Below the pieces are notes generated by a model that was not told the origin of the DNA, searched no databases, and worked only from the letters and a program-made list of their open reading frames with translations. Position numbers and translations under genes: made by a program. A stretch of 64,000 nt of DNA. Origin: Anaerolineae bacterium (lineage in GTDB: Bacteria > Chloroflexota > Anaerolineae > DRVO01). The first letter of the stretch is position 1; the number at the start of each line of letters is the position of its first letter. Positions 14,630 to 61,898 of the stretch are shown piece after piece. The stretch spans positions 553,279-617,278 of the forward strand of contig JAXGMM010000001.1 in the NCBI GenBank assembly GCA_040768685.1. The letters run 5' to 3'.

Positions 14630-14647
14630 CATAGCCGCACAAGAGCG

Positions 14648-14684
14648 CCCGCGAGCAAGCCGTAGTGCCTGCTCGCGGGTTGCC
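14648..14684 (+). promoter_or_regulatory. intercistronic stem-loop between SBP and permease genes
   Basis: CCCGCGAGCA-12nt loop-TGCTCGCGGG perfect 10-bp stem then TTGCC; typical partial terminator/mRNA stabiliser placement. Confidence 0.4.
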
Positions 14685-14709
14685 ATGGACAACGCAGTCT
14701 GGGGGAAGA

Positions 14710-15717: not shown

Positions 15718-15733
15718 GAGGAGAGCGTCTCAG

Positions 15734-16588: not shown

Positions 16589-16597
16589 GGGCGGGCC

Positions 16598-17599: not shown

Positions 17600-17627
17600 G
17601 GTCCAGAACGTAAGCAGAATCTTCCAC

Positions 17628-18566: not shown

Positions 18567-18749
18567 GTCAGAAGGGCGGGCATTAGCACAGCGGGACGAA
18601 TGCACCGCCCGCTCCACAGCAGGCGTCTCTGCGACAGGCGCAGGGCGGCCGCTCTGGCGGCGGTCGGGCGCAGATCGCGATGCGCGGTCCCGTCTGTGTT
18701 TGTAGCCAGAGACACTAGGGCACGGGGAGCCAATTCCGGGAGGGATTGC

Positions 18750-19964: not shown

Positions 19965-21110
19965 TCACTTGTCCCGCGGTGCGACGTCGACCGCTTCCAG
20001 TGGAACGCCGGCGCGCACAGTCAGAGCGGCCACGAGCCGTCGGTGCAGCACTTCAGGGACGCCCTCACAGTCCTCCAGGGGGAATTCCCCATCCTCCTCG
20101 CGCAGCACGGCGACATCGGCGCAGGCGCCCTCCCGTAGGGTGCCGATCTCGTCCTGCATGCCCAGCATGGCGGCCGGGGCGGCGGTGGACAGCCGCACCA
20201 CCTCGGCGAGGTCCATGCCCAGGTGGAGGAACTTGCTCATCACCGACGTCATACCGAAGGCGGGCCCGTTGATGCTGCCGGTGTGGACGTCGGTGGAGAT
20301 GGAGTCGGGCGGGAAGCCTTGCTCCAATGCGTACCGCGCCACCTGCCAGGAGAAGCTGCCGGCGCCGTGGCCGACGTCGAATAGGACGCCGCGTTCCCGC
20401 GCTTCCCAGGCCTCCGGCCGGACTCTTCCCCCGTGGATGACCAGGCAGCCGGTGCGGCCCTTGTAGGCGTGGGTGATGATGTCGCCCGGGCGCATGATCG
20501 GGAGGATGGCCCAGAGGCCCGGAGGTGGAACGCCGATGTGGCACATGACCGGCAGGTTGACGGCCTCGCCAACCTCGCGCGCGATGCGAACCGGCGTTAG
20601 GTCGTTGGCGCCCACCTGCAGGCCGCTGGCCAGCACCTTGATGCCCTTGATGAGGTCGCGGTTGGCCTGCACCGTGTCGTAAGCGGCGTCGGCGTTGTAG
20701 TGGTGCACGTTCTCGTGCGCGCCGCTATAGGCGGTGAGCCCCGGTGTCGAGATGTTCAGGTAGGGCGCGATGCGAACGGTGGACGGCTCGATGAGGAACC
20801 GCCGGAAGCCGGCGAAGTTGCTCGCCCCGGCAGAGCCGGCGTCCACCCAGGTGGTGGCGCCGCTGCCGGGAGCGTGCTTGTCGGCCTCGAGATTAAGGTA
20901 CCCGGCGCCCCAGTACACGTGGGTATGCATGTCAATGAGGCCGGGCGTCACCAGGCAGCCGGATGCGTCGAAGGTGCGTTCCGCCTCGGCGACGATGGCG
21001 GTGGCCACCCGAGCGATGCGGCCGTCGAAGATGGCGACGTCGGCTCGTTCATTCCGCCCGGTCGACGGGTCAAGGACGCGGCCATTGCGGATAACGAGTT
21101 GATAGCGCAT
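19965..21110 (-). CDS. amidohydrolase family metallo-hydrolase (deacylase/dihydroorotase-like)
   Basis: GLIDMHTHVYWG metal-binding HxH, DVGHGAGSF, 381 aa; paralog of adjacent gene. Confidence 0.75.
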   Translation of the reverse strand: MRYQLVIRNGRVLDPSTGRNERADVAIFDGRIARVATAIVAEAERTFDASGCLVTPGLIDMHTHVYWGAGYLNLEADKHAPGSGATTWVDAGSAGASNFAGFRRFLIEPSTVRIAPYLNISTPGLTAYSGAHENVHHYNADAAYDTVQANRDLIKGIKVLASGLQVGANDLTPVRIAREVGEAVNLPVMCHIGVPPPGLWAILPIMRPGDIITHAYKGRTGCLVIHGGRVRPEAWEARERGVLFDVGHGAGSFSWQVARYALEQGFPPDSISTDVHTGSINGPAFGMTSVMSKFLHLGMDLAEVVRLSTAAPAAMLGMQDEIGTLREGACADVAVLREEDGEFPLEDCEGVPEVLHRRLVAALTVRAGVPLEAVDVAPRDK

Positions 21111-21196
21111 TCGGTCTCTCCCGCCGGGCGGATGGTCGCAGTGTATGCCGGCGGGGGTTCCGTGCCAACGGAAGCGGTCTTGGGCGACGAGGCCGC

Positions 21197-22315
21197 CTAG
21201 AGTCGCTCTCCGCTCCGGATGGTGTGCACCGGCACAAGCCTCTCGGTCACGATCTCCGTGACGCCCTCAGTGTCGGTGAGGGGGAAGCGACCGTCTTCTA
21301 AGCGCAGGATGCTCACATCGGCCTCGGCGCCCAAGCGCAGGTGACCCAGGGAGTCTGACATGCCAAGGGCGTGTGCGGGCGCGGTGGTCGCCAGACGCAC
21401 CACTTTGGGCAGCGAGAGGCCCAGGTGGAGGAACTTCGTCATCACCGACGGCAGGCTGATGGCCCCGCGCGCCACGCTGGCGACGTGGAGATCGGTGGAG
21501 ATCACGTCCGGCGGGAAGCCCTGGGCCAGCGCCGCCCGCGCCACGCTCCAGGAGAAGCTGCCCGCCCCATGCGCCACGTCGAAGAGCACCCCGCGCTGCC
21601 GGGCGGCCCACGCTTCGTCGCGCACCCGATCGCCCTCCACCAGCAGACACCCCTTCCGGCCCTTGTAGCAGTGGGTGATGATGTCGCCGCCGCGCATCAG
21701 GGGAAGCATGTCGCCCAGACCGGGCGGGGGCGCGCCGATGTGGCACATCACCGGCAGGCCGGTGGCCTTGCCCGCCTCTAGGGCGGTCCGCAACGGAATG
21801 AGGCCGCTGGGGCCGACGCGCATCGCGCAACTGAGCACTTTGATGCCGCGGATCAGGTCGCGGTTGTCCTCCACGGTGCGCCAGACGGAGTCCACATTCA
21901 GGTGCTCGATGACGCCGTGGACTACCTCCAAGCAGGTGAGGCCGGGCTCGGATATGTTGAGGAAAGGCACGATCCGAGCCCGAGCCGGCTCGATCACGTA
22001 GTGCCGGAAGGCGCGGAAGTTGGCCGATCCGGCACTGCCCGCGTCCACCCAGGTGGTGACGCCGGCCGCGGCCGCGTGGGCGTCGGCGTCGAGGCTCAGG
22101 TCGTCAAGACGGTGCGCTACGTGCGTGTGCAAGTCGACCAGGCCGGGAACGACCAGGCAGCCGGAGGCGTTCAGGCGATTGCTGGCCTCGGCCGCAGAGA
22201 GGTCCGGCGCGATGTCCGCCACCCGACCGTCGACTACAGCCACGTCGGCCACTTCATCGCGCCCTTGAGCCGGGTCGAGGACGCGCCCGCCGGTGATCAG
22301 GAGGTCGTAGCGCAT
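21197..22315 (-). CDS. amidohydrolase family metallo-hydrolase (paralog)
   Basis: MRYDLLITGGRVLDP, GLVDLHTHV, DVAHGAGSFSW; colinear similarity to 19965-21110. Confidence 0.75.
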   Translation of the reverse strand: MRYDLLITGGRVLDPAQGRDEVADVAVVDGRVADIAPDLSAAEASNRLNASGCLVVPGLVDLHTHVAHRLDDLSLDADAHAAAAGVTTWVDAGSAGSANFRAFRHYVIEPARARIVPFLNISEPGLTCLEVVHGVIEHLNVDSVWRTVEDNRDLIRGIKVLSCAMRVGPSGLIPLRTALEAGKATGLPVMCHIGAPPPGLGDMLPLMRGGDIITHCYKGRKGCLLVEGDRVRDEAWAARQRGVLFDVAHGAGSFSWSVARAALAQGFPPDVISTDLHVASVARGAISLPSVMTKFLHLGLSLPKVVRLATTAPAHALGMSDSLGHLRLGAEADVSILRLEDGRFPLTDTEGVTEIVTERLVPVHTIRSGERL

Positions 22316-22342
22316 GCGGTCTCCCGAGGGCTGCCGTTCGCT

Positions 22343-24064
22343 CTAGTCGGCGCCCGCGTCGATGTAGGCGTACTGAAGGATGGGGACCACCATCGATGGG
22401 TGCGGCAGGTCCCTTACGTAAGGCTTGGTCAGCCGGTACTCCACGTCGTGGTAGAGGGGGATCACCGGGGACTCGGCAAGGACGGTCTTCTCCGCTTCCA
22501 GGTAGAGGAGGTGGCGCGTCTCCAGGTCCATCTCCAGCCCTGCCTCGCCGAGGAGCCGGTCCACCTCCGGGTTGGAGTAGCCGCTATGGTTGTCGTAGCT
22601 GGCGCTGTCGAAGAGGACCTTCAGGAAGTTCTCCGGGTCCGGATAGTCGGCGATCCATCCGAGGACGTACATCTGGTAGGGGTGGTGCGGATCGTCCAGG
22701 CCCTCGAGGAAGTCGCGCCAGTCGCTCTGTTCGACCTCCAAGGTGATGCCCAGGTTCTCCTCTAGCGTGACCGCGATCGCCTCGGCCACTGAGTCAGTCT
22801 GGGGGGCGGTGTTCGCCACGTGTAGGGTGATGGTGGGCAGCCGTTCCGCCCCGCCGTAGCTGGACTGCGCCAGCATCTCCAAGGCGGCGGCAGGGTCGTA
22901 CTCGGGGCCGACTATGCCCGCGTTGTCGTAGTGAGGCATGCCCGGAGGGATGATGGTGGAAGCCGCCGGCACGGTGCTCTGGTAGAGCATGTCCACGATC
23001 CGCTGCCGGTCCAGCGCCATGGCGAAGGCCTGCCGCACCTCGGGCTCGTCGAAGGGGGCGGTGTCGCAGCGCAGGCCGACGTAGAAAGTGGCCAACTGAT
23101 CGATGATCGACAACTCGTCGTTCAGGCCCTGCTCGGGATCGGTGATTCGAGGCAGGTTGCTGATGCCGACGCCGGTCACATCAAGCTCGCCGTTCTCGTA
23201 CATGGTGACGCCCTCGCCCCCGCCCAGCATGAACACCACCCGGTCGAGCGCCGGCTGGGGGTCGCGGTAGTAGTTGCGGTTGGCGAGCAGGGTGATCTGG
23301 GAGCCCGGCACCACCTCGCCCAGCCTGAAGGGTCCGGTGCCGTTGAAGCGCTCCAGGACGTCTTTCGAGTCCAGCGACCGGCGGTCGACGACGAAGGCGA
23401 CCGGGTGCGACAGCTTGGCCAGGAAGGAGGGACGCGGGGCGTCGATCTCTATCTCGAGAGTGTAGTCGTCCAAAACTCGGACGCCCTCAAGGTGATCGGC
23501 GTCGCCCGCGAGCATGGCCTGGGCGCCGACGATGTCGCCCAAGTAGGTGGAAGCGATGGGCGAACCGGTGGCAGGGTCGCACGAGCGCTCAAGGGAGAAC
23601 CGGAAGTCCTCGGCGGTTACGGGCGTGCCGTCATGGAAGACGACATTGGTGCGCAGGTGGAAGGTGTAGACGGTACCGTCCTCGCTGACCTGATAGGACT
23701 CGGCGATGTCAGGCGTCAGCGCCAGGTCGGCGCCGGCGGTGACGAGACCGCTGTAGATCTCGACGATGTACTGGGCTGAGGTGCTGTCCTGGCTCATGGC
23801 CGGGTCGAGCGTGGGGGGCATGGAGCCCGGGAGGCGGAGTTCGCCGCCGATGGGACGGCCGTCCGTGGTGAAGGCGCCGGGCGTCGGGCCGGGGACGGCT
23901 CGCGTCGCGATGACGCCGGTGGCACGCATCTCGAGGCCATCGTAGGACAACTCACCCGGGCGGATCGACATGAGGGTAAGGCCGGCGCAGCCGCCGCAAA
24001 GAACCAGGCAGCCGCACGCGAGGGCAATCACGAGCAGAATCACGATCGGCGAACGTTTTCCCAT
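22343..24064 (-). CDS. ABC transporter substrate-binding protein, family 5, lipoprotein
   Basis: signal peptide with LACGC lipobox; SBP_bac_5 length; start ATG 24064 has AAGGGAG SD (alternative 24088). Confidence 0.8.
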   Translation of the reverse strand: MGKRSPIVILLVIALACGCLVLCGGCAGLTLMSIRPGELSYDGLEMRATGVIATRAVPGPTPGAFTTDGRPIGGELRLPGSMPPTLDPAMSQDSTSAQYIVEIYSGLVTAGADLALTPDIAESYQVSEDGTVYTFHLRTNVVFHDGTPVTAEDFRFSLERSCDPATGSPIASTYLGDIVGAQAMLAGDADHLEGVRVLDDYTLEIEIDAPRPSFLAKLSHPVAFVVDRRSLDSKDVLERFNGTGPFRLGEVVPGSQITLLANRNYYRDPQPALDRVVFMLGGGEGVTMYENGELDVTGVGISNLPRITDPEQGLNDELSIIDQLATFYVGLRCDTAPFDEPEVRQAFAMALDRQRIVDMLYQSTVPAASTIIPPGMPHYDNAGIVGPEYDPAAALEMLAQSSYGGAERLPTITLHVANTAPQTDSVAEAIAVTLEENLGITLEVEQSDWRDFLEGLDDPHHPYQMYVLGWIADYPDPENFLKVLFDSASYDNHSGYSNPEVDRLLGEAGLEMDLETRHLLYLEAEKTVLAESPVIPLYHDVEYRLTKPYVRDLPHPSMVVPILQYAYIDAGAD

Positions 24065-24233
24065 CAAGAACGCGGCTCCCTTAACCATCGGGTCTGTACG
24101 GATTCATGAGGCAACGGGCGTCATTCTATGGGCCGTTCCCGGCAACGGCAAAGCCCGGCCCCTCTTGATTCGGCGTGACGGTCCGGCTACACTCGACTCC
24201 AACGATGATGAATGATCAACTGAGGGCCGAGCC

Positions 24234-47968: not shown

Positions 47969-49693
<1,725 letters not shown>

Positions 49694-49743: not shown

Positions 49744-50151
49744 TCATGACCTTGCCGCTTCGGGCAGCGACTGGCAGACAAGATCGAACACAAAGCGGGC
49801 CGCCTCGAACGCTGCCACGAACTCCTCGGTTCCGGGATCCTCAACGTCGCCAGGGTACCGGAACATGACCGCGTACGGCGTAAGCAGTTCTGCCGCATCA
49901 AAGCAGGCGGCGAATGAACTGCCTAGCGCCACTGCTTGCTGGACCAATACGCTCAGATCGTGCGTCTTGCCAAACCTGATGTCATGGTGGGTCAGGTACG
50001 CTTTGAGGGACTTCTCCGCTGCCTGCTGACAGTGAAAGACCGCGACATCCAGGTACGGGTCGCGAGGAGATGCCAGCCTTTCGGCGGCGCCCAGATCACG
50101 CTGAGCCTTCAGCAACCATGCGCGTACTTGCTCCAGCTTGGCGTCGTCCAT
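49744..50151 (-). CDS. HEPN domain protein (HepT-like toxin)
   Basis: Rx4H motif IRFGKTHDL, AEKSLKAYL; start at internal ATG 50151; overlaps MNT gene by about 56 nt. Confidence 0.65.
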   Translation of the reverse strand: MDDAKLEQVRAWLLKAQRDLGAAERLASPRDPYLDVAVFHCQQAAEKSLKAYLTHHDIRFGKTHDLSVLVQQAVALGSSFAACFDAAELLTPYAVMFRYPGDVEDPGTEEFVAAFEAARFVFDLVCQSLPEAARS

Positions 50152-50440
50152 AGAGAGACCGACCCTCCTCACTGATCCTGGCCTCCAGAGAGGCATGGAC
50201 TCGTCTTGACAGCTCGTACTCCCTGCGGGTCCGAACGAGTACGTCCACGGCGGTGTCTAGGCCCCGCAGCGATCGATAGGCGCGGGTAGCCCGACGAGCC
50301 GGCTTTTCATCACTCTCCGAGACAATCACCATCACGTCGATGTCGCTGTCTTCACCGGGGACGCCCCAGGCCTGCGACCCAAACAGGAGGATCTCCTCGG
50401 GCTGGAACTCAGCCACCAGGCGACGGACAATCTCGCTCAT
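50096..50440 (-). CDS. nucleotidyltransferase (MntA-like antitoxin)
   Basis: LFGSQAWGVPGEDSDIDVMVIV GS-x9-DxD motif. Confidence 0.65.
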   Translation of the reverse strand: MSEIVRRLVAEFQPEEILLFGSQAWGVPGEDSDIDVMVIVSESDEKPARRATRAYRSLRGLDTAVDVLVRTRREYELSRRVHASLEARISEEGRSLYGRRQAGASTRMVAEGSA

Positions 50441-50615
50441 GACTTGATCGCCTACCTCGTACATGGCTCAATCTCCGACGTGACCATCTACGGCGGCCGG
50501 CCTCAGGACCAGCCTTTGGGGTGAGTGCGCCCCTCACCGCTTCCACAGCATTATACACTGCTCTTGGGCCGGACACGCTCTCGTCGCCGTGTCCTGTGCC
50601 CGGGCGCGGGGCCAT

Positions 50616-50645
50616 TGTGGCACGAAAGACGCCGGTGCTATAATC
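50616..50645 (+). promoter_or_regulatory. sigma70 promoter of tig-clpP-clpX
   Basis: TTGTGG-18nt-TATAAT; AGGAG SD 10 nt before TTG 50676. Confidence 0.55.
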
Positions 50646-50675
50646 TGGGCCGAATCCTGCCAGGAGCGACACCAG

Positions 50676-52061
50676 TTGAAGGTTACTACCCAGCAGACGG
50701 AAGATTGCGTCACTAGCCTCACCATCGAAGTCGACGACGAGACGATGGCCGCCGCCAAGCGGAAGGCGGCTCAGGAAGCCTCGGGTCGTTTCCAGATACC
50801 CGGGTTCCGCAAGGGCAAGGCCCCGTATGACGTGATCGTCCGTCTGATGGGTGACGATTACCTCACCCACGAGGCGCTCGAGAACGTGGCTCCCGAGTTG
50901 GTGGCGAATGCCATCGAGGAGCAGGAGATCAAGCCTTACAGCCGACCGGAGCTAACCGAACTGGAGGCGCATCCCCCGCGCATCGTCGTCGCCATCCCGA
51001 CCGAGCCGGTGGTTGAGCTGGGAGACTACCGCTCTTGCAAGGTGGAGCGTCAGCCGGTGGAAGTGACTGAGGAGGCGCTGGAGGAGTACCTGCAGGAGCT
51101 TCGCCGCCAGCGCGGCCACCTTGAGCCCATCGAGCGCCCGTTGCAGGTGGGCGACATCATCAGCGGCCGGATGCTGATCCAAGTCGAAGATGGCCCCACC
51201 GATGACGATGAGAAGGCACGATTCCCGGTGCCCACGGCTGAAGAGGAGGGCGTTCCCGGACTCTCCGAGCACTTGGTGGGGGCCACCGTAGGCGATGTTG
51301 TCGAGTTCGACACCGTCTTCCCGGTGGATCACCCGAACGGCGAGGTCGCGGGCAAGAACGCCCACGTAACCGTGGAGCTCAACGAGACGCATACCCTGGT
51401 GCTGCCGGATCTGAACGACGAGTTCGCGATCATGATGGGCGACTACGACGACCTCGCCGCCCTGCGGCAGGAGATGCGCCAGCGGCTTGAGGTTCAGGCC
51501 AAGGAGAGCGCGGACGAGAAGGTGCGCCGGGACGCCGTCGAGGCGCTGGTGGCTGGGGCGAGCATCAAGTATCCCAAGGCGGCGGTCGAAGACGAACTGG
51601 ACCGGCTGATGGCTAACCTGGAGCAGAGGCTGCGCCAGCAGCGCATCAGCCTGGAGGCTTACTTCCAGGCTCTGAAGACGACACGAGAAGAAGTGCGTGA
51701 ACGGCAGCGCTCCGTGGCCGAGCAGAACGTGCGTGAGGGCCAGGCCCTGCGGAAGCTGATTGAGGCGGAGAAGATCGAAGCCACCGACGAGGAACTGACG
51801 GCGCGCATCAACCGCATGGCGCAGGACATCGGCGCCGCTGCCGGTGGGGCGGCAGATTACCTGCATAGCGCGGAGTTCCGCGCCCGGGTAGCCGCCAGCC
51901 TGATGATGGAACGCGGCATGCGTCGTCTGGTCAGCATCGTCACCGGTGAGCCCGAGCCTCCGGAGGAGGAATTGCCTCTCGAGGACATGCCGGCGCCTGC
52001 TGTCGAGGTGATCGAGGCCGCCGAAGGGGAGGACGGGACTTCAACTCCGAAGGAAGAGTAA
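50676..52061 (+). CDS. tig: trigger factor
   Basis: [21 protein letters not shown]-terminus, FRKGKAP ribosome-binding motif; ORF track start 50589 is upstream of the promoter so TTG 50676 preferred. Confidence 0.85.
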
Positions 52062-52063
52062 GC

Positions 52064-52711
52064 ATGAATAGCCTCATTCCCATGGTTATTGAGAGCACCG
52101 GTCGGGGCGAGCGCGCCTACGACATCTACTCGCTGTTACTGCGCGAACGTATCATCTTCCTGGGCACACCGATCAACGACCAGGTCTCGAACCTGGTTGT
52201 GGCGCAACTGCTTTACCTGGACCGGGAAGACCCGGAAAGGGAGATCTCGATCTACATCAACTCGCCTGGTGGAGAGATCTACCCCGGCTTGGCGATGTAC
52301 GACACCATGCAGATCATCGAGGCCCCGGTGAGCACCATCGCCGTGGGCTGGACGGCGAGCCTGGGCACGCTCATTCTCGCCGCGGGCACAAAAGGCCGCC
52401 GGTATGCTCTCCCCAACGCCACGGTGCACATGCACCCGGCGGGAGGCGGCGCGCGGGGCTACGCTCCGGACGTGGAGATCGCGGCCAAAGAACTGCTGCG
52501 GATGCAGGGCCGCCTTCACCAGATTCTGGCGAGGCACACCAAACAGACGGTGGAGCAGATCGCGCTGGACTTCCAGCGGGATCGGTTCATGTCGGCGGAC
52601 GAGGCCGTAGAGTACGGCCTTGTCGACCAGGTCCTGAGCGTCAACGACAAGAAGCTCGAGTTGCTCAACGCCGCGGGCGGCACGCCCTCGGAGGGTAAGG
52701 CGGATGGATAG
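52064..52711 (+). CDS. clpP: ATP-dependent Clp protease proteolytic subunit
   Basis: [10 protein letters not shown], catalytic Ser/His/Asp context ([13 protein letters not shown]). Confidence 0.9.
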
Positions 52712-53981
52712 CCCTCGGAGCATGCAGTTCTGCTCATTCTGCAGCCGGCGCCAGGACCAGGTGGGTCGGCTGATAGCCGGGCCGGACGGCGTCTTCATCT
52801 GCGACGAGTGCGTGGATCTGTGCCGGGATATCCTGGAGGAGGAGCGCGGCGCCAAGGTGCAGCCGGCGCCCACGAGCATGCAGTTGCCCTCGCCCAAGGA
52901 GCTGTACCGGCGAATCAACGAGTATGTCGTGGGTCAGGACCAGGCCAAGAAGGTCCTGTCCGTAGCGGTGTACAATCACTACAAGCGCATCAGCGACGAC
53001 CGCCCAGACGACGGTGTGGAGTTGCAGAAGAGCAACGTCCTCCTCATCGGCCCCACCGGCTGCGGCAAGACGCTCTTGGCGCAGACGCTGGCGCGAATCC
53101 TGAACGTGCCGTTTTGTATCGCCGACGCCACATCGCTGACCGAGGCCGGCTATGTGGGTGAGGACGTGGAGAACATCCTCCTGCGTCTCATCCAAGTGGC
53201 GGACTTCGACATAGCACGGGCGGAGAAGGGCATCGTCTACATCGACGAGATCGACAAGATCGCGCGGAAGGCGGGCGACAACCCTTCGATTACGCGCGAC
53301 GTTTCCGGCGAGGGTGTGCAGCAGGGCCTCCTCAAGATCATTGAGGGGACCCTGGCCAACGTCCCGCCCCAGGGCGGCCGCAAGCACCCGCATCAGGAAT
53401 TCCTGCAGATCAACACCGGCAAGATACTTTTCATAGTCGGGGGCGCCTTTGATACCCTCGACGAGATCGTGGCGCGGCGCGTAGGCGCCAAGGGACGCGT
53501 AGGCTTCCCCAAGGGCGAAGCAATGCGTCATAACCGCACCGCCGAGTTGGGCGAGCTCCTGCGCCAGGTGGCGCCCGATGACCTGCTCGAGTTCGGGCTG
53601 ATCCCCGAGTTCGTCGGGCGTCTGCCCGTCGTGGTGAGCGTCGATCCGCTCGACCGTGACACCCTCATCGAGATCCTCACCCAGCCGAAGGACGCGGTGC
53701 TGAAGCAGTACCAACGCCTTTTCGCCATGGACAACGTGGAGTTGGTGTTCACCGAGGATGCCCTCAGCGCCATCGCCGACAAGGCGCTGGGACGGAAGAC
53801 AGGCGCCCGCGGCCTACGCACCATCGTGGAAGAGATACTGCTGGATGTGATGTACGAGATCCCCTCCCGCAAGGACGTCCGCAAGTGCATCGTCAGCGGC
53901 GATACGGTACAGCTGGGCAATCCACCGCTCCTACTGACCCAGTCGGAGCGTCCGGTGGATTGGCTGGAGGAGATAGCTTAG
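52704..53981 (+). CDS. clpX: ATP-dependent Clp protease ATP-binding subunit ClpX
   Basis: zinc finger CSFCSRRQ...CDECVDLC, Walker [17 protein letters not shown]. Confidence 0.9.
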
Positions 53982-54089: not shown

Positions 54090-55145
54090 GTGAACGCGAG
54101 AGAGCGCTTCCTGGCGGTGTTGGACGGGGTGCAGCCGGACCGGGTCCCTACCTTTGAGATTCTCATCCATCCAACGGTGGTGAAGGGGCTGTGCCCCGGA
54201 GGAAGCTACGCCGACTTCGTGGAAGCGATGGACATTGAGGGCGCCATCACGGGGACGCCATCGTCGCTGTACGCCAAGACGGTGGTGGACGCGGATAGGC
54301 ACATCGTGCGGGACGAGTGGGGCGTCACCCGCGGAGTGGGGACGGAGGTGGTGCCCATGCCCATGGGCGGCCCCATCGAGACCATAGACGACCTGCACGG
54401 CTACCGCGCCCCCGATCCCTGGTCCCCGGGGCGGTTGCGCCAGCTGGAGGAGTTGGCGGCCCGCTTTCGCGGCCAGCGTGCCCTGGGCGTCCATCTGCAC
54501 GACTCCTTCAGCTACCCGACCTATCTGATGGGCATGGACAAGCTGCTGATGGCGTTCCACCTGGACCCTGACCTGGTCCGGGCATTGGTCGACCTGTCTA
54601 TCGAGCACACACTGGGGATGATCGAGCATGCGTCCAAGTTGGGCGCCGACTTCGTGCTCTTCGGCGACGACTACGCCGCTACCTCCGGCCCGCTGATGAG
54701 CCCCAACACCTTTGAGGAGTTTCTGCTTCCCGGGCTACGCACGGTGGTGCGGGCGGCCAAGGAGCGGGGATTGCGGGTGATCAAGCACACCTGCGGCCGC
54801 ATCACGCCGCTGCTGGATATGATCGTGGACACGGGGATCAACGCCCTCCATCCGTTGGACGCGGCGGCGGGGATGGATATGGCGGCGGTGAAGCGAGAGT
54901 ACGGTGGACGCATCGCCGTATGCGGGGGCATCAACTGCGGCGAGGTGCTTAGCGACTGGACGCCCGAGCAGGTCCGGACCGAGGTGCGACGTCGCCTGGA
55001 GGAACTGATGCCGGGCGGCGGCTACATCCTGTGCTCGAGCAACTCCATCCACTCGCGCGTGCGCCCGGAGAACTACGGCGCCATGATCGAGGCGCTACAC
55101 GAGCACGGCGTCTATCCAGACCGATTGGCCCGCCCTTCCCAATAG
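54090..55145 (+). CDS. URO-D family protein (MtaA/CmuA-like)
   Basis: MNARERFLAVLDGVQPDRVPTFE N-terminus, IKHTCGRITPLLDMIVDTGINALHPLD, GGYILCSSNSIH C-terminus. Confidence 0.7.
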   Translation: MNARERFLAVLDGVQPDRVPTFEILIHPTVVKGLCPGGSYADFVEAMDIEGAITGTPSSLYAKTVVDADRHIVRDEWGVTRGVGTEVVPMPMGGPIETIDDLHGYRAPDPWSPGRLRQLEELAARFRGQRALGVHLHDSFSYPTYLMGMDKLLMAFHLDPDLVRALVDLSIEHTLGMIEHASKLGADFVLFGDDYAATSGPLMSPNTFEEFLLPGLRTVVRAAKERGLRVIKHTCGRITPLLDMIVDTGINALHPLDAAAGMDMAAVKREYGGRIAVCGGINCGEVLSDWTPEQVRTEVRRRLEELMPGGGYILCSSNSIHSRVRPENYGAMIEALHEHGVYPDRLARPSQ

Positions 55146-55421: not shown

Positions 55422-56414
55422 ATGGCTGACAAGGTTCGCATAGGGTTCATCGGTTCCGGCGGCATCGCCATCGGGCATGCCATGCGGCTGCACGAGAGCG
55501 CCCTGGCGGAAGTTGTGGCGCTCGCCGATCCCAGCGAGGCTAGCTTGAACCGGATGAAGGAGTGGCGGCCGGAACTGGCGGGCGTGGCCACCTTCGTCGA
55601 CTATCGGGAGATGCTGGACAAGGCCAATCTGGATGCCGTCCAGATTCACTCGCCCCACTGCTATCATGCCCAGCAGATGATCGACTCACTGGACGCCGGC
55701 AAGCACGTCCTCTGCGAAAAGCCGATGACCTCGACGGTAGAGGACGCTCGGAGAGTCATCGCCAAGCGCGATGAGACGGGGAAGATCCTGGTGATCTCGT
55801 ATCAGCGGCACTACGAGGGCACCTACCGCCTTATCCGGCAGATGGCACAGGGCGGCGAACTGGGCAAACTCCAGATGGTGGCGCTGATTCTCAGCCAGGA
55901 GTGGCTGAACGCCACCCGAGGCAAGTGGCGCCAGAGCATGAAGCTATCATGCGGCGGTCAGCTCAACGACTCCGGCAGCCACTTGGTCGACATGATGCTG
56001 TGGACCACCGGCCTGCAGCCGGAGCGCGTCTTCGCCGAGATCAACTACTTCGATGCCGAGGTGGACATCGACAGCGCCATCTCGGCACGGTTCGCCGGCG
56101 GCGCGCTGGGCAACGTGACTATCATGGGCGGCTCGCCTACGCCTTTCTGGGAGTTTTTCGGCGTTTGGGGCTCCACGGGAGCGGTCATCTACGACCGCAT
56201 CAACGGCCTGCAGGTCCTTCGCGAAGGGAAGGAGACGGTGAGGCCGGAACTGCCTCCCTCGGCGGGAGACCCGGACACCAACTTCGTTCGCGCCATACTG
56301 GGGCTGGAAGAGCCGGGCGTGCCTGCCGAGTGTGGGTTGCGAGTCAGCGAGTTTACTGAAGCGGCCTGGCGCTCGCAGAAGAGCGGGCTTCCCGTGCGCG
56401 TGCGGGACATGTGA
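55422..56414 (+). CDS. Gfo/Idh/MocA family oxidoreductase
   Basis: MADKVRIGFIGSGGIAIGHAMRL Rossmann N-terminus, CEKPMT. Confidence 0.85.
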   Translation: MADKVRIGFIGSGGIAIGHAMRLHESALAEVVALADPSEASLNRMKEWRPELAGVATFVDYREMLDKANLDAVQIHSPHCYHAQQMIDSLDAGKHVLCEKPMTSTVEDARRVIAKRDETGKILVISYQRHYEGTYRLIRQMAQGGELGKLQMVALILSQEWLNATRGKWRQSMKLSCGGQLNDSGSHLVDMMLWTTGLQPERVFAEINYFDAEVDIDSAISARFAGGALGNVTIMGGSPTPFWEFFGVWGSTGAVIYDRINGLQVLREGKETVRPELPPSAGDPDTNFVRAILGLEEPGVPAECGLRVSEFTEAAWRSQKSGLPVRVRDM

Positions 56415-57397
56415 TGACCCGGCTGGCCATCCTCACCAGCGGGGGGGACTCCCCGGGGACCAACGCCGCCATCGAGGCGGTGGTCCGGCACGCCCGGCGG
56501 CAGGGCGCCGAGGTGCTCGGCGTCCGCCGGGGCTTCGTGGGCCTCGCTGCCGGCGACCTCTTCCCGCTGACCGTTGAGGATGTGGACGGCATCGCAGCCC
56601 GCGGCGGCACGGTTCTGGGCACGTCGCGGGACCGCGCCGTCGGGGAGGCCGACGGTCAAGAGCGTATGCGGGCGGTGGTGCGGAGCGAGTCCATCGACGG
56701 CATCATCGTCGTCGGCGGCGACGGAAGCATTCGCTACGGCGCCACCGCCCTGAGCGACATGGGGACGGCTTGCGTCGCCATCCCCTGCACCATCGATAAC
56801 GATGTACCGGAGACGGAGCGCACGCTTGGGTTCGACACGGCCTGCAACCGGGCCATTGGGCTGGCGGACGGTATCCGGGACACGGCCCAGGCTCTGCACG
56901 GCCGCATGTTCGTCCTGGAGACGCTGGGTGGGAGCACCGGGCACATCGCCGTGGCCGTGGCGGAGGCGGTGCATGCCGACTTAGTGCTCGTGCCCGAGGT
57001 CACCCTGGACCTGGACTACGGCGCGGCCCGCATGGCGGCGGCGGTCGCGCGCCAGGGGTATGCCCTGGCGGTGGCCTCCGAGGGCGCCGGCGACGTTCAT
57101 GCTATGGCTGCCTACCTAGGGGAGGCCGCCGGTCATCGGGTGCGTTTGACCACGCTCGGCCACGCGCAGCGAGGGGGGGCGCCAGGCTACCTGGATCGAT
57201 GGCTGGCGGAGCGATTCGCACTGTTGGCTGTGGAGCGTCTGTTGGCGGGTCGGGGAGGCTGCATGACGGCCTGCCACGGATTGCGAGTGGAGGCCGTACC
57301 GCTCGCCAAGGTCGCCGCCGGGCAACGGAAGCTGGATCTCATCACGTACCGGGACATCAACGGCCTGCCGCCGGAAGGTTCGACTGACGGGCACTAG
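56411..57397 (+). CDS. PFK-family (PfkA-like) sugar-phosphate kinase with non-canonical substrate motif
   Basis: GGDSPGTNAAI, GGDGS, PCTIDNDVPETERTLGFDTA, LGHAQRGGAPG conserved; canonical MGR replaced by LETLGGSTGH; GTGA/ATGA overlap with upstream gene. Confidence 0.8.
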   Translation: MMTRLAILTSGGDSPGTNAAIEAVVRHARRQGAEVLGVRRGFVGLAAGDLFPLTVEDVDGIAARGGTVLGTSRDRAVGEADGQERMRAVVRSESIDGIIVVGGDGSIRYGATALSDMGTACVAIPCTIDNDVPETERTLGFDTACNRAIGLADGIRDTAQALHGRMFVLETLGGSTGHIAVAVAEAVHADLVLVPEVTLDLDYGAARMAAAVARQGYALAVASEGAGDVHAMAAYLGEAAGHRVRLTTLGHAQRGGAPGYLDRWLAERFALLAVERLLAGRGGCMTACHGLRVEAVPLAKVAAGQRKLDLITYRDINGLPPEGSTDGH

Positions 57398-57509
57398 TTG
57401 CCCGCTTCACGATTTGACAAGCCGGTTCGGCCGGTATCATAGTGAAACCTGTCCTCGGGGGGTGGCGTTTCGCGTCGCCCGCATCGACAGAAAGCGAGAG
57501 GGGAGCTTG

Positions 57510-58832
57510 ATGAACGAGCAGGGGAAGAGAGTACTGATCCTCGGTGGAAGCTATGGAGGGCTGTACTGCGCTGAGTTCCTGCACGACTTGGCGAAGAAGA
57601 GCAGTGCTCCGAAGCCCAGAATCACCGTCATCGATCGCAAGAACTACGTCCTGTACCACGCGTTTCTGGCCGAACTGGTGAGCAACCAGGTGAACCCGCT
57701 CAGCATCGCACCTTCGATCCGGCGAGTGTTGGCCAAGAGAGACGTGGAGTTCATTCAGGCCGAGATCCTCGAGATCGACCTCGAGAACAAGCGGGCCGTC
57801 ACCGATAACGGCACCTACGAGGGCGACGTGCTGGTTCTGGCTTTGGGCGGCGTCACCGGCTACTTCGGCAACGCCGACTTCGAGAAGTACGGTTACCCCT
57901 GCAAGGAGATGGAGGACGGCCTTCGTCTGCGCAATCACATCATCGAGTGCCTCGAACTGGCCGATCGTTCCCGTGACCAAGAGGAACGGCGCCGGCTCTT
58001 GACCTTCGTGCAAGCGGGCGCCGGCGCCACCGGGCTGGAGGTGCTCACCGAGGCCGCCGACTACATGCGCAAGGTGTGCGGCAAGTTCTACAAGTCGCTC
58101 AACTACCGGCGCGACGTCCGCCTCATCCTGGCGGAGGGTATGGAGCGAGTCCTCTGCACGCTGGACCCGGAGATGTCCGCGGAGGCAGACCAGAGGATTC
58201 GGAAGCTGGGGATCGAGGTGCACTGCGGCACCTTCGTCACCGGCGCGGGCGACGGGTATGTGGACCTGAAGAGCGGCGGCGAGGTGACCCGCGTCCCTAC
58301 GGACACCCTCATCTGGGTGACGGGTATTCTGGCGAGCCCACTGATCGCTAAGCTGCCGGTGGAACACGACAAGATGGGCCGGGTGAAGGTCGACAAGCTG
58401 TTCCAGGTCGCCGGTTACCCCGACGTGTATGCGGTGGGCGATAATGCCCACGTTCCCGACGAGAGCGGCACTGCCCCGCTGGGCACGACCGCCCAGGTCG
58501 CCGTTCAGGCCGGGCCGGCGCTGGCCCGCAACCTCCTGGCCAAGTGGGAAGGCCGCGAGATGACGCCCTTCAAGTACTGGAACCGCGGCGAGATGGTGAG
58601 CGTCGGCACGCTGGATGCAGTGTGCTCGCCTTTCGGCAAGAAGGTCTATGGCCCTCTCGCGTGGATGCTGTACAAGTACGTCCACTTCAGCAAGATGCCC
58701 ACCTGGCACGCCCGTCTTCGCACCATGTCGGACTGGCTGCTTAACTGGACCAGCGGCCCGAACATCTGCACCGTGGACTACCGCGGCTGGATGCAGGACA
58801 AGAGGGAACGTCAGGAGTACATGAAGCAGTAG
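57510..58832 (+). CDS. type II NADH dehydrogenase / FAD-dependent pyridine nucleotide-disulfide oxidoreductase
   Basis: two dinucleotide folds VLILGGSYGGLY and VQAGAGATGLEV; start at internal ATG 57510. Confidence 0.75.
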   Translation: MNEQGKRVLILGGSYGGLYCAEFLHDLAKKSSAPKPRITVIDRKNYVLYHAFLAELVSNQVNPLSIAPSIRRVLAKRDVEFIQAEILEIDLENKRAVTDNGTYEGDVLVLALGGVTGYFGNADFEKYGYPCKEMEDGLRLRNHIIECLELADRSRDQEERRRLLTFVQAGAGATGLEVLTEAADYMRKVCGKFYKSLNYRRDVRLILAEGMERVLCTLDPEMSAEADQRIRKLGIEVHCGTFVTGAGDGYVDLKSGGEVTRVPTDTLIWVTGILASPLIAKLPVEHDKMGRVKVDKLFQVAGYPDVYAVGDNAHVPDESGTAPLGTTAQVAVQAGPALARNLLAKWEGREMTPFKYWNRGEMVSVGTLDAVCSPFGKKVYGPLAWMLYKYVHFSKMPTWHARLRTMSDWLLNWTSGPNICTVDYRGWMQDKRERQEYMKQ

Positions 58833-59109: not shown

Positions 59110-61086
59110 GTGATGTTGGATCGAGTGAACCGACGAGGGTTCCTGCGGGTGACGGCGATGGCAACGGCCATGGGGGCGGTTGCTGCCTGCGGCGGAGGCC
59201 CCGCCCCGACCCAAGCACCAGCCGAGCCGGCGGCTACTACGGCGCCGGCAGCCACAGCCGCGCCCGTTGAGACCGCGGCCAAGTACGCAGAGTCGCCCAC
59301 ACTGGCAGATCAGGTCGCCGCCGGCACGCTCCCGCCGGTGGCGGAGCGGCTGCCGCTGGAGCCGCTGGTTGTCCAGGCGGTGGATCGCCCCGGCGAGTAT
59401 TGCGGGGACCTGCATCGGGTGCTGACGGGCCCGACCGACATGGGCGGCTACACGTGTATGATGCGCGAGAGTTTCGCCGGATGGGACTTCCGCAGCGGCA
59501 GCATTGAAGTGATCCCCAACATGGCCACGGGTTGGGACGTCAGCGAAGACACCAAGGTGTATACCTTCCACATGCGCAAGGGCATGCGATGGTCGGATGG
59601 CGAGCCGTTCACTGCGGACGACTTGGTCTTCTGGTACCAGGATATTGCCCTGAACAGCGAGCTGACCCCATCGTTCCCGGCCTGGCTGAAGGTGGGCGGG
59701 GAGCCGGTGGTGGTGGAGAAGGTCGACGACTACACGGTGAAGTTCACCTTCGCGGCTGCCTACGGCATCCTCTTGGAGTACTTGGCTTTCCGCGGTGAGG
59801 CCCTGATGGCCCCCAAGCACTACCTGAGCCAGTTCCACCCCACCTACGCCGACGCGGACGAGTTGGCGGCCAAGATCAAGGACGCCGGCTTCGAGCACTG
59901 GTACGAGCTGTTCGCCAACCGCAACTCCTATACCACCAATCCTGATCTGCCGGTGCTGTGGAGCTGGAAGGTGGAGACGCCCTTCCCAGGGCAGCGGATG
60001 GTGTCGGTGCGGAACCCCTACTACTGGAAGGTAGACAGCAACGGCAAGCAGCTCCCGTATTTCGACCGACTGGTCAACGACCTGGCCGAGAACAACGAAG
60101 TCATCATGATGAAGACCATCGCCGGTGAAGTCGACTACCAGTACCGGCACATGGGCTTTGCCAACTACTCCCTGATGATGGAGAACGAGGAAGGCGGCGA
60201 CTACAAGGTCCTTGAATGGATCGGCGGGCCGTTCCCCTGTGTGTACGTGAATCAGAGCTACGGCGACCTGCCCGTCCGCGAGTTGCTACAGACCACCGAG
60301 TTCCGCCACGCGCTTTCCTACGGCATCAACCGCGATGAAATGAACGACCTCTTCTGGTACGGCCTGGCTGTTCCGGGGAATCCGGTGGCCGGCTCGCGCG
60401 ACCCGTACTGGGAAGAGGGCTTCGGCACGACGGCGATCGAGTTCAACCCGGAGAAGGCCAACGAGCTGTTGGACAGCATAGGGCTGGACAAGAAGGATGT
60501 GGACGGTTTCCGGTTACGTCCCGACGGCGAGCGGCTCACCCTGTTACTGGAGTGCTACCCCAGCGAGGGGGGCGTGCCCGCAATTGACGTCTTCAGCCAG
60601 GTCGCCATGTACTGGCAGGAGCTCGGAATCGATGCGCAGGCCAAGGAGATCGAGCGGTCTCTCTGGACGCAGCGGGCACTGGCCAATGAGCTAATGATGC
60701 CTTCGTACGATATCGCCAAGGTCCTCTGGGTGATAGACCCGGTGTGGTTCGTGCCGTACGGCACCTGCTACTGGGCAATGGCATATGCTCAGTGGGCGAC
60801 CAGCGACGGCACAGCGGGCGAGGAGCCTCCGGAGGACATCAAGCAGATCATCCAGTGGTATGAGGCCATGCGCTCCGAAGGCGATGCCGCCAAGCGGTTG
60901 GAGCTCGGCCGGAACATCCTCCGGCGGCACCACGAGGAGGTGTACGTCATCGGCACGTGCACTATCGATCTGCAGCCGTTCATCAAGAAGAACGATCTGG
61001 TGAATGTTATCGAACACGCCGTGGCCGAGAACCGGACCAATCACGAGCAGATCAGCTGGCCGTGGCAGGTTTGGCGCCCGGCTTAG
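59110..61086 (+). CDS. ABC transporter substrate-binding protein, family 5, Tat signal lipoprotein
   Basis: MLDRVNRRGFLRVTAMATAMGAVAAC twin-arginine + lipobox; 658 aa. Confidence 0.85.
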   Translation: MMLDRVNRRGFLRVTAMATAMGAVAACGGGPAPTQAPAEPAATTAPAATAAPVETAAKYAESPTLADQVAAGTLPPVAERLPLEPLVVQAVDRPGEYCGDLHRVLTGPTDMGGYTCMMRESFAGWDFRSGSIEVIPNMATGWDVSEDTKVYTFHMRKGMRWSDGEPFTADDLVFWYQDIALNSELTPSFPAWLKVGGEPVVVEKVDDYTVKFTFAAAYGILLEYLAFRGEALMAPKHYLSQFHPTYADADELAAKIKDAGFEHWYELFANRNSYTTNPDLPVLWSWKVETPFPGQRMVSVRNPYYWKVDSNGKQLPYFDRLVNDLAENNEVIMMKTIAGEVDYQYRHMGFANYSLMMENEEGGDYKVLEWIGGPFPCVYVNQSYGDLPVRELLQTTEFRHALSYGINRDEMNDLFWYGLAVPGNPVAGSRDPYWEEGFGTTAIEFNPEKANELLDSIGLDKKDVDGFRLRPDGERLTLLLECYPSEGGVPAIDVFSQVAMYWQELGIDAQAKEIERSLWTQRALANELMMPSYDIAKVLWVIDPVWFVPYGTCYWAMAYAQWATSDGTAGEEPPEDIKQIIQWYEAMRSEGDAAKRLELGRNILRRHHEEVYVIGTCTIDLQPFIKKNDLVNVIEHAVAENRTNHEQISWPWQVWRPA

Positions 61087-61100
61087 TGCGCGGGCGACTC

Positions 61101-61136
61101 GAGAGGGGCGGCACAGTCCGCCCCTCTTCCGTTTCC
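61101..61136 (+). terminator. rho-independent terminator
   Basis: GAGAGGGGCGG-cacagt-CCGCCCCTCTTC then CGTTTCC. Confidence 0.55.
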
Positions 61137-61205
61137 GATGTCCGTGCCGGTCTCTTTAGTAGTTCCGAGCACACTGACCGCGCGGCGCGAAGTGAGGTGC
61201 AGGGA

Positions 61206-61898
61206 ATGGCATCCAGGACTATGGGCAGTGGGAAGCAAACGAAGCAGTGGCTCGAGGCCGAGGCCAGGATACCGGTCCGGCTGGGCTACTTGCTGCACCT
61301 GCCGGGCGACTATCGGAAGGATCCGGACAAGCGGTGGCCGCTCATCCTCTTCCTGCACGGGATGGGGGAGCGGGGAGACGACCTGGAGAAGGTCAAGATC
61401 CACGGCATCCCCAAGTTGGCCGACAAAAACCCGGACTTCCCCTTCGTGACCGTCTCGCCTCAATGCCCGGCCGACTCGGTGTGGACGGCGCAGCTCCCGG
61501 CGCTGGAGGCACTGCTGGACTTGGTGCTCGATCATTATGCCGTGGACCCGGCGCGCGTGTACCTGACCGGCCTGAGCATGGGCGGCTACGGGTCGTGGGC
61601 GTTGGGGTCGCAGTCGCCGCAACGTTTCGCGGCGGTGGTGCCCATTTGCGGCGGCGGCCGGACGGAGGCAGGCTTCCCGGCCAAGGTCGCGGCCCTCAAA
61701 GGAGTGCCCGTGTGGGCCTTCCATGGCGCTGATGACGCCGTCGTACCGTTGGCGGAGTCGGAGAAGCTGGTGGACCATCTGCGATCGGTCGGCGGAGACG
61801 TCCGGTTGACGGTGTACCCGGACTGTGGGCACAACTCCTGGGAACGGACCTACGACAACCCGTATCTCTATCGCTGGCTGCTCAAGCACCATCGCTGA
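61206..61898 (+). CDS. alpha/beta hydrolase, phospholipase/carboxylesterase (PHB-depolymerase-like esterase) family
   Basis: LILFLHGMGERGDD, nucleophile elbow GLSMGGYGSW; ORF track start 60957 overlaps SBP and terminator so ATG 61206 with GAGGTG SD preferred. Confidence 0.7.
   Translation: MASRTMGSGKQTKQWLEAEARIPVRLGYLLHLPGDYRKDPDKRWPLILFLHGMGERGDDLEKVKIHGIPKLADKNPDFPFVTVSPQCPADSVWTAQLPALEALLDLVLDHYAVDPARVYLTGLSMGGYGSWALGSQSPQRFAAVVPICGGGRTEAGFPAKVAALKGVPVWAFHGADDAVVPLAESEKLVDHLRSVGGDVRLTVYPDCGHNSWERTYDNPYLYRWLLKHHR

Follow-up and report, generated by a model that had tools for sequence, protein, structure and literature searches.

A PfkA-fold kinase of a distinct 'ETLGG' subfamily, encoded in overlap with a Gfo/Idh/MocA oxidoreductase in Anaerolineae: a candidate specialized ketose-phosphate kinase

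The kinase locus

The DNA stretch analyzed here (the window) comprises 64,000 nucleotides of contig JAXGMM010000001.1 of an Anaerolineae bacterium (assembly GCA_040768685.1, positions 553,279 to 617,278 of the forward strand; G+C ~66%) and encodes, on the plus strand, a PfkA-family kinase (56411-57397; PF00365, E-value 4.6e-76) of a group denoted hereafter, after its altered sugar loop, the ETLGG subfamily. The gene immediately upstream (55422-56414, plus strand, 330 aa; PF01408, PF22725, PF02894) encodes an NAD(P)-dependent oxidoreductase of the Gfo/Idh/MocA family (hereafter Gfo). The two genes meet in an overlapping stop/start junction, ATG TGA TG (56409-56416, plus strand), where the sequence reads GAC ATG TGA and the Gfo stop codon TGA occupies 56412-56414; the overlap is 4 nt if the kinase starts from GTG 56411 and 1 nt if it starts from ATG 56414, which bears out the initial annotation, where a GTG/ATG start overlapping the Gfo stop had been proposed. 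Also on the plus strand, the pair is preceded by the genes for trigger factor (tig, 50589-52061), clpP (52064-52711), clpX (52704-53981) and a uroporphyrinogen decarboxylase (URO-D)/MtaA-like protein (54090-55145; PF01208 9.5e-33, below every NCBIfam cut-off), and is followed by the gene for a type II NADH dehydrogenase (NDH-2, 57414-58832). An Rfam search of the window gives zero matches, so that no regulatory RNA is detected around the Gfo-kinase pair; no terminator-like sites were found around it, and the sole promoter-like site nearby lies just past the kinase stop codon, upstream of NDH-2. A tblastn search of the window with the Bacillus stearothermophilus phosphofructokinase (PFK) matches the kinase gene only, so that no second PFK is found in the window.

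Counted from GTG 56411, the open reading frame (ORF) of the kinase encodes 328 aa; counted from ATG 56414, it encodes 327 aa, and the identical database protein, P0001, is annotated from this ATG. The protein scores 256.3 bits with the Pfam profile PF00365 (PFK; cut-off 30.9), over positions 1-275 of 277, and passes the NCBIfam subfamily model NF002872 (272.5 vs a cut-off of 253). The equivalog model TIGR02482 (PFKA_ATP) is not reached (260.8 bits vs 371.35), and the scores for the NCBIfam models of pyrophosphate (PPi)-dependent PFKs are far under all cut-offs. Sequence identity to the B. stearothermophilus PFK is ~40%. The AlphaFold2 model (mean predicted local distance difference test score, pLDDT, 96.6) has the two-domain PfkA fold, and a Foldseek comparison superimposes it on the B. 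stearothermophilus enzyme (4I36, 6PFK, 3PFK) with a template modeling (TM) score of 0.92 and a root mean square deviation of 1.7-2.0 Å.

Residues are numbered below as in the B. stearothermophilus PFK (Bs), unless marked as window, i.e., according to the kinase itself. The motifs that the initial annotation listed as retained, GGDSPG, GGDGS, TIDND and HxQRGG, are all located in the ORF, and all lie on the plus strand: the nucleotide-binding loop SGGDSPG (56438-56458, window aa 10-16) with G11 and D12; GGDGS (56714-56728, window aa 102-106) with D103, S105 and G104, the last being a determinant of the ATP type; CTIDND (56786-56803, window aa 126-131) with C124, T125, D127 and D129, which include the catalytic base and a Mg2+ ligand; and GHRVRLTTLGHAQRGG (57131-57178, window aa 241-256), which includes GHAQRGG, the retained 6-phosphate ligands window Arg245, His251 and Arg254 (Bs 243, 249 and 252) and a clade-specific arginine, window Arg243 (Bs 241). 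The catalytic residues Asp127, Asp129 and Asp103 are all present; window Gly105, Cys126 and Arg165 correspond to Bs 104, 124 and 162. At the positions that distinguish phosphoryl donors, the kinase has Gly at 104, Gly at 108 and Cys, not Lys, at 124. Under the rule that Gly104, a small residue at 108 and the absence of Lys124 mark ATP-dependent enzymes (PMC10339645), the kinase is predicted to be of the ATP type rather than the PPi type, because G104 is present and neither K124 nor D104 is found.

The departure from PfkA lies in the loop LETLGGSTGH (56915-56944, plus strand, window aa 169-178), which replaces (I/V)EVMGRxxGD and in which window T171, L172, G174 and T176 correspond to Bs 168, 169, 171 and 173. 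Alignment with the B. stearothermophilus and E. coli PFKs places the substitution of L-E-T-L-G-G for M-G-R, as first annotated, exactly at (I/V)EVMGR, so that the Met169-Gly170-Arg171 loop of PfkA reads Leu-Gly-Gly in the kinase. Overall, the kinase resembles bacterial PfkA (4PFK/6PFK, and 1PFK from E. coli) in fold, length, Asp127, TIDND, GGDGS, SGGD, Arg72, Glu222 and the four ligands of the 6-phosphate, and differs from it in LGG for MGR, V168T, A173T and E241R; it is set apart from the PfkA equivalog by the loop, the TIGR02482 score, the effector site and its placement in a separate clade. Decay into a pseudogene is ruled out by the intact ORF, the high-confidence model and the conservation of the catalytic residues throughout the clade.

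The ETLGG subfamily

Among the 120 best homologues of the kinase, 76 contain G170-G171, nearly always within ETLGGxTG[HFY]; these 76 sequences were compared with 41 canonical sequences. The 76 sequences form a clade that is monophyletic in 50/50 neighbor-joining bootstraps computed after removal of nine signature columns. A profile search over 1.84 billion representatives (E <= 1e-30) yields 2,802 PFK-family matches; ~23 single-domain TLGG representatives occur among the best 150 profile matches, after which canonical MGR enzymes take over. Judging by these comparisons of sequences, the ETLGG clade is real, deep and small, accounting for about 1% of the family diversity at 50% identity. Its members come from metagenome-assembled genomes (MAGs) labeled Anaerolineae, Bacillota, Armatimonadota, Phycisphaerales and Deinococcota, and the closest relatives of the window kinase are MAG proteins labeled Anaerolineae. 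A tblastn search against plasmids retrieves canonical MGR enzymes only and no ETLGG member, and a metagenome scan with the clade alignment identifies a single clade member (on contig L035) among the 80 matches listed. The group is not described in the 2025 review of the superfamily (PMC12203962).

The substitutions that distinguish the clade include A71S; V168T (75/76, with Val in 40/41 canonical sequences); M169L (71/76, Met in 41/41); R171G (76/76, Arg or Lys in 41/41); A/C173T (71/76, Thr in 3/41); Asp at 187 (69/76 vs 2/41); a one-residue deletion at 212 (62/76, with a gap in 3/41); V/I250A (63/76, Ala in 3/41); and the replacement of E/D241 by Arg (71 sequences) or Lys (5 sequences). Conversely, G11, D12, R72, T125, D127, D129, R162, E222, R243, H249 and R252 are essentially invariant (n = 76), G104 is retained, and position 124 is never Lys. 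The Thr125/Asp127/Asp129 residues are kept in 74-75 of the 76 sequences, the exceptions being a single sequence with Ser at 125 and a truncated one with gaps. This conservation of the working residues therefore indicates purifying selection on both catalysis and the phosphate pocket.

The allosteric effector site, which in PfkA consists of Arg21, Arg25, Arg154, Glu187, Lys213 and His215, is altered in the window kinase by R21E, E187D, K213Q and H215Y. Arg21 is found in 41/41 canonical sequences, in 0/76 clade members and in 0/17 further representatives; in the clade, Tyr takes the place of His215, position 213 (Lys) varies and Asp is found at 187, a pattern shared by 17/17 further representatives. 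The E187D substitution renders the E. coli PfkA insensitive to phosphoenolpyruvate (PEP) (PMC10339645). To the extent that control can be read from these residues, classical regulation by PEP and ADP is very probably absent from the clade.

A similar loop, ET-M-G-G at the same position, is found in the C-terminal (fructose-2,6-bisphosphate-binding) half of eukaryotic PFKs. That half lacks the catalytic residues, which the window kinase retains, and mammals have a residue other than Arg at position 241, as judged from the rabbit muscle enzyme. A shared origin of the clade with the eukaryotic regulatory half is ruled out, given that both halves score higher with the canonical hidden Markov model (HMM) than with that of the clade; the common ETxGG motif is therefore a case of convergence.

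Several other PFK-family variants came up in the same searches. A second small group of PfkA variants has ETMGAG (R171A) together with TIDNN, i.e., D129N at a Mg2+ ligand (P0089, P0090, P0092, P0114); it retains E241 and the phosphate pocket and may represent a further PFK lineage that is altered or inactive. The top match of the clade profile, P0130, is a protein of 2,620 aa with eight PFK-matching stretches, which might be a multi-PFK fusion or an artefact of assembly or gene calling. One metagenome contig (L053, 8959-10936) contains two tandem PFK-family genes, both outside the ETLGG clade. The 271-kb plasmid pMtWR-220 of Meiothermus taiwanensis (L018, 2652-12039) encodes a canonical MGR PfkA that reads GGGGS, not GGDGS, in a cluster with the genes for fructose-bisphosphate aldolase (~6.5 kb away), a GH57 family glycoside hydrolase (GH), GlgP and an adjoining type II glyceraldehyde-3-phosphate dehydrogenase; thus, even enzymes of canonical appearance do not strictly require Asp103.

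The 6-phosphate pocket and a candidate compensating arginine

The four ligands of the 6-phosphate in the 1PFK and 4PFK structures, which we take to be Arg162' and Arg243' (a prime denoting the neighboring subunit), His249 and Arg252, are all present in the window kinase and in 76/76 clade members. Published accounts list Arg162' among four residues binding the fructose-6-phosphate (F6P) phosphate (PMC12203962) and name R162 and H249 as 6-phosphate ligands (PMC10339645). Retention of the four residues suggests, therefore, a substrate with a terminal phosphate, or some other anion, still in place; it does not indicate a loss of the F6P site. Arg171 itself reportedly lies on the side of C1, in contact with the 1-phosphate or transferred phosphoryl group (Shirakihara & Evans 1988; Berger & Evans 1990/1992). 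The R171S substitution reportedly costs only a few-fold in kcat. The earlier rationale, that the Arg of MGR contacts the 6-phosphate, is accordingly wrong, because Arg171, by these accounts of the crystal structures, falls outside the four-ligand set, and the pocket is intact.

An arginine elsewhere that might compensate for the missing Arg171 had been considered at the outset, and there is a candidate, E241R/K, basic in 76/76 clade members vs 0/41 canonical sequences; that such a residue exists stands, and it may play the compensating role. On the modeled beta-strand 242-247 (P0001 numbering), Arg243 (Bs 241) precedes Arg245 (Bs 243) by two residues, and because of this spacing on a strand, their side chains should face the same way, towards the active site of the neighboring subunit. 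The further TLGG representatives have R241 in 12/17 cases. One of them has E241, however, and so does the ETMGAG group with A171; these two observations argue against compensation and against positions 171 and 241 covarying independently, so that the idea rests mainly on a single evolutionary event and on strand geometry. An exchange of Arg171 for window Arg243' is thus a reasonable inference from the model, and not a result.

Genomic context

The Gfo protein matches PF01408, PF22725 and PF02894 with 86.9, 71 and 37.2 bits, respectively, which covers its N- and C-terminal domains, and its translation has a readable GxGxxG-type N-terminus and an LCEKPM (EKP) motif. It does not reach the equivalog level (the best NCBIfam match is IolG, with 120.6 bits vs a cut-off of 355), and the closest solved structures, namely DgpA, WlbA-like proteins, glucose-fructose oxidoreductase (GFOR) and inositol dehydrogenases, assign it at the family level only. 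In five related Anaerolineae contigs (L007, L008, L009, L010 and L099), a Gfo orthologue is encoded immediately upstream of the kinase with the same overlap, the identities to the window proteins being 62-77% for the kinase and 66-88% for Gfo. The overlap persists where the flanks have changed, e.g., in L009, where a transposase gene lies upstream of the pair and a LysM gene follows it. In each of the five relatives, the pair is flanked by URO-D-like genes: orthologues (74-91% identity) lie upstream in L007 and L099, and L009 and L099 have a paralogue (33-39% identity) encoded downstream and on the opposite strand. A functional link between these genes and the pair is uncertain.

More distant members of the clade, with 41-49% identity to the window kinase, are found in different and more telling neighborhoods. 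In L002, the kinase gene is followed by that of a class II ketose-bisphosphate aldolase (TIGR00167, 266 vs a cut-off of 215.6), with genes for a ROK-family and an FGGY-family kinase in divergent orientation; the FGGY kinase, close to the kinase-aldolase pair, is XylB-like. In L014 (5108-10264), the genes for a ribose-type solute-binding protein, a permease and an ATPase precede those of the kinase (P0084) and of a LacD-type tagatose-1,6-bisphosphate aldolase (416 vs 184), and a PfkB gene ~4 kb away has tagatose kinase as its best match (252 bits, under the cut-off of 420). In L101 (4839-14013), a ribose-type transporter and the kinase are encoded together with class II and DhnA-type aldolases, a non-orthologous Gfo protein, a PfkB protein and a D-lyxose/D-mannose isomerase, and L102 and L103 (5162-11371) have a transporter, the kinase, a DhnA/Cgl0159 aldolase, PfkB and a lyxose/mannose isomerase; a ROK regulator gene is divergently oriented in L101 and in L102/L103. 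Aldolase genes thus lie directly downstream of clade kinases in four independent arrangements, and both IolC-like PfkB genes and genes for Cgl0159-type aldolases occur in ETLGG operons. The recurrent operon of L101, L102, L103 and L014 has the appearance of a pathway complete in itself, leading from aldohexose to triose phosphates.

Other members are encoded inside glycoside-hydrolase clusters (L013, L017 and L035, with GH129/DUF5696, GH38, GH42, GH67 and GH101-like genes), and in L016 the kinase gene is followed by that of an Ldh_2 2-hydroxy-acid dehydrogenase. In two contigs (L011, 6712-9032; L012, 2049-4369), the kinase gene lies 3 nt downstream of a gene for a RuBisCO-like protein of 428 aa, the pair being located between DUF2252 and DUF5996/major facilitator superfamily (MFS) genes. 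Alignment with RbcL of Thermococcus kodakarensis reveals that the RuBisCO-like protein retains K175, K201, D203, E204, H294 and the S379-G381 loop and has kept the carbamylated lysine/metal site and the proximal phosphate site; because K177, R295, H327 and K334 are missing, it is a form IV protein that lacks the distal-phosphate site. The second-best NCBIfam match of this protein is OiaX, an enzyme acting on 3-oxo-isoapionate-4-phosphate. A RuBisCO-like protein and a PFK-fold kinase paired in this way appear not to have been described before.

Predicted function and alternatives

The observations described above are best compatible with the prediction that the kinase is an active, specialized, nonallosteric, ATP-dependent ketose-phosphate 1-kinase of the PfkA fold, representing a separate, old subfamily; this reading of the sequences can be given a probability of roughly 0.5. 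A 1-kinase acting on a terminally phosphorylated ketose is proposed because the catalytic apparatus and the phosphate pocket are conserved, aldolase genes lie downstream, and the operons encode a second kinase. By homology with PfkA, window Asp129 (Bs 127) would deprotonate the C1 hydroxyl of a ketose phosphate, and MgATP held by the SGGD, GGDGS and Arg73 (window) elements would donate its gamma-phosphate, while the terminal phosphate of the substrate would be bound in the pocket of window His251, Arg254, Arg165' and Arg245'. Window Arg243' (Bs 241) might either replace the charge of Arg171 across the subunit interface or add an extra contact to an anion. The product would be a ketose 1,6-bisphosphate, to be cleaved by an aldolase. 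The enzyme would thus be a catabolic feeder kinase for ketohexose 6-phosphates (F6P and/or its epimers, such as tagatose-6-phosphate) and not a regulated glycolytic valve; turnover of F6P is expected. In this Anaerolineae lineage, the co-translated Gfo oxidoreductase would probably supply the ketose or ketose phosphate.

The balance tips slightly towards a specialized catabolic role and away from a purely housekeeping one, because the remodeling of the sugar loop is fixed, the effector site is lost and the operons are linked to transporters. As for the substrate, F6P fits the operons with an isomerase, where mannose could be converted via fructose and F6P to fructose-1,6-bisphosphate (FBP), and tagatose-6-phosphate fits the L014 context. 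The initial annotation held that the substrate is probably not F6P. The separate remodeled subfamily, the conserved overlap with Gfo and the sugar operons speak for this view, and the intact phosphate pocket speaks against it, so that what stands is a specialized, possibly non-F6P substrate, which is plausible. The more specific proposal, that the physiological substrate has changed as Arg171 was traded for an arginine of the neighboring subunit (Bs 241), and that a non-fructose ketose phosphate or a keto-sugar acid made by Gfo feeds dedicated aldolases or the RuBisCO-like enzyme, is put forward tentatively, as the less probable side of the question.

Among characterized enzymes, the closest parallel to the predicted reaction is provided by the tagatose-6-phosphate kinases (LacC), which likewise phosphorylate a ketohexose 6-phosphate at C1 ahead of an aldol cleavage; LacC, however, has the PfkB fold, unlike the PfkA fold of the kinase. 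Within the PfkA fold, the Mycobacterium tuberculosis PfkA, a canonical MGR enzyme, accepts tagatose-6-phosphate (cited in PMC10339645).

Several observations weigh against the prediction of a specialized ketose-phosphate 1-kinase. Annotations of canonical enzymes assign Arg171 to substrate binding and to the transition state, and its loss could lower activity more than is assumed here. D103, although Asp in the window kinase, is Asn or Gly in 33/76 clade members. No characterized clade member was found among the database homologues or in the superfamily review, and all members are MAG proteins that annotation pipelines name 6-phosphofructokinase. Finally, the pair in the window has no adjoining gene for an aldolase, a transporter or a first kinase, and is surrounded by the housekeeping genes tig, clpP, clpX and NDH-2, which would suit an ordinary glycolytic PFK equally well.

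Such an ordinary glycolytic ATP-PFK, with F6P as the sole relevant substrate, lineage-specific loop changes and the adjacency to Gfo inherited as synteny, is the alternative that fares best, although it is on balance unlikely. It would agree with the retention of every ligand of the sugar hydroxyls and phosphate except M169 and R171, with the match to NF002872 and with the synteny of the tig-clpPX-UROD-Gfo-PFK-NDH2 block in related Anaerolineae; the L002 arrangement of a ROK kinase, a PFK-like gene and a class II aldolase resembles a glycolytic mini-cluster, and the mannose-to-FBP sequence outlined above is compatible with the isomerase/PfkB/aldolase operons and with the neighboring gene for a GH38 mannosidase. 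It does not readily explain, however, why five positions close to the active site are fixed differently across a deep clade, why the allosteric site that flux-controlling PFKs typically have is gone, and why the overlapping Gfo-kinase junction survives the rearrangement of its flanks in L009; moreover, transporter-linked operons with aldolases of their own would be needless if the intermediate were a central metabolite.

A second alternative sharpens the idea of the initial annotation that the substrate is made by the dehydrogenase: Gfo would produce a keto-sugar acid without a phosphate, and the kinase would phosphorylate the primary alcohol beside its keto group, with the arginine cluster, window Arg243' included, binding a carboxylate in place of a phosphate. 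There are functional analogues in IolC and the DUF1537 3-oxo-acid-sugar kinases (OtnK/OiaK), which phosphorylate a primary alcohol beside a ketone, after a dehydrogenase and before an aldolase or a RuBisCO-like enzyme; their folds are unrelated to that of the kinase, so that the analogy is one of function only, echoing the Gfo and, in one gene arrangement, the RuBisCO-like contexts. Beyond the translational coupling of the two genes, the IolC-like PfkB genes and Cgl0159-type aldolases of the operons, the Ldh_2 dehydrogenase encoded after the kinase in L016 and the adjoining RuBisCO-like protein of L011 and L012, with OiaX as its second-best match and no distal-phosphate site, point in this direction, most of the support coming from the RuBisCO-like and Ldh_2 contexts. 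Nevertheless, H249, R252, R162 and R243 are fully conserved, as is characteristic of a phosphate pocket, the most informative contexts encode a second kinase (PfkB, ROK or FGGY) that could provide the first phosphate along with aldolases of the bisphosphate type, and the RuBisCO-like link is a single arrangement on two contigs. This alternative is therefore considered improbable.

Phosphorylation of sedoheptulose-7-phosphate (S7P) in place of transaldolase, as in the sedoheptulose-bisphosphate variant of the pentose phosphate pathway, is very improbable. Although PFK-family enzymes are known to catalyze this reaction (PMC12203962, PMC10339645), and a XylB-like FGGY kinase is encoded near the kinase-aldolase pair of L002, genes of the pentose phosphate pathway do not recur in the neighborhoods. 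PPi-PFKs, including those that use S7P, belong to the same superfamily as the kinase and are typically nonallosteric (PMC12203962); they have Asp104 and Lys124, and the S7P users have replaced R162 and H249 (PMC10339645), unlike the kinase with window Gly105, Cys126, Arg165 and His251 and unlike the clade, which keeps R162 and H249 invariantly. The least probable of the alternatives is a non-catalytic, ligand-binding or regulatory paralogue comparable to the eukaryotic C-terminal PFK half: in mammals, the sequence of this half at the loop position is ETMGGYCGYLA, and D103 varies in the clade, but D127, D129, T125, R72, G11 and D12 are essentially invariant and present in the window kinase, and the clade HMM is favored by 0/75 N-terminal and 4/75 C-terminal eukaryotic halves.

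The kinase is a testable lead to an enzyme function, of modest weight, and a reason for caution when glycolysis is called from MAGs, rather than a surprising new system. Clade members annotated as 6-phosphofructokinase are counted towards complete glycolysis in metabolic reconstructions of MAGs from Anaerolineae and other uncultured groups; if their preferred substrate or role differs, such reconstructions would be wrong at a key step, and a set of transporter-linked sugar operons would gain a functional anchor. A changed substrate would amount to a new activity of the PFK fold and to one or more unrecognized routes of sugar catabolism in Chloroflexota, Bacillota, Deinococcota and Armatimonadota. 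The clade also offers a natural experiment, in which a transition-state arginine is either dispensable or supplied from another subunit, in a PFK devoid of the classical allosteric site.

Other features of the window

Besides the URO-D-like gene described above, the initial annotation noted a solute-binding protein near the pair; it is present as an orphan SBP_bac_5 gene (59110-61086, plus strand). A link between it and the pair is unsupported, and it was rejected as a functional partner: no permease genes adjoin it, and it is missing from this position in L009 and L099, i.e., not conserved with the pair. The next gene encodes an esterase (60957-61898, plus strand; a mechanically called ORF of 313 aa overlapping the end of the SBP_bac_5 gene), the true start of which is probably an internal Met near 61200, given a length of 223-230 aa for its orthologues in L007 and L009.

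A second URO-D-like gene of the window (18600-19820, 406 aa) is the last gene of an Opp/Dpp-type ABC transporter operon (12641-19820, plus strand) that consists otherwise of an SBP_bac_5 gene, two permease genes and two ATPase genes. URO-D-like genes accordingly recur in the window near family-5 solute-binding proteins (12641-19820, and 54090-55145 with 59110-61086); the encoded URO-D proteins are neither HemE nor MtaA.

Between nadE (47969-49693) and tig, the window contains a toxin-antitoxin-like pair of genes for an NTP_transf_2 nucleotidyltransferase and a HEPN protein (49744-50464, minus strand). In the syntenic contigs L007 and L008, the same slot is occupied by a PIN-domain gene and a small ORF, which suggests a variable toxin-antitoxin islet. 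On the minus strand at 19965-24088, an SBP_bac_5 gene is followed by two tandem genes of the amidohydrolase family, an arrangement that may represent a cluster for peptide or amide utilization.

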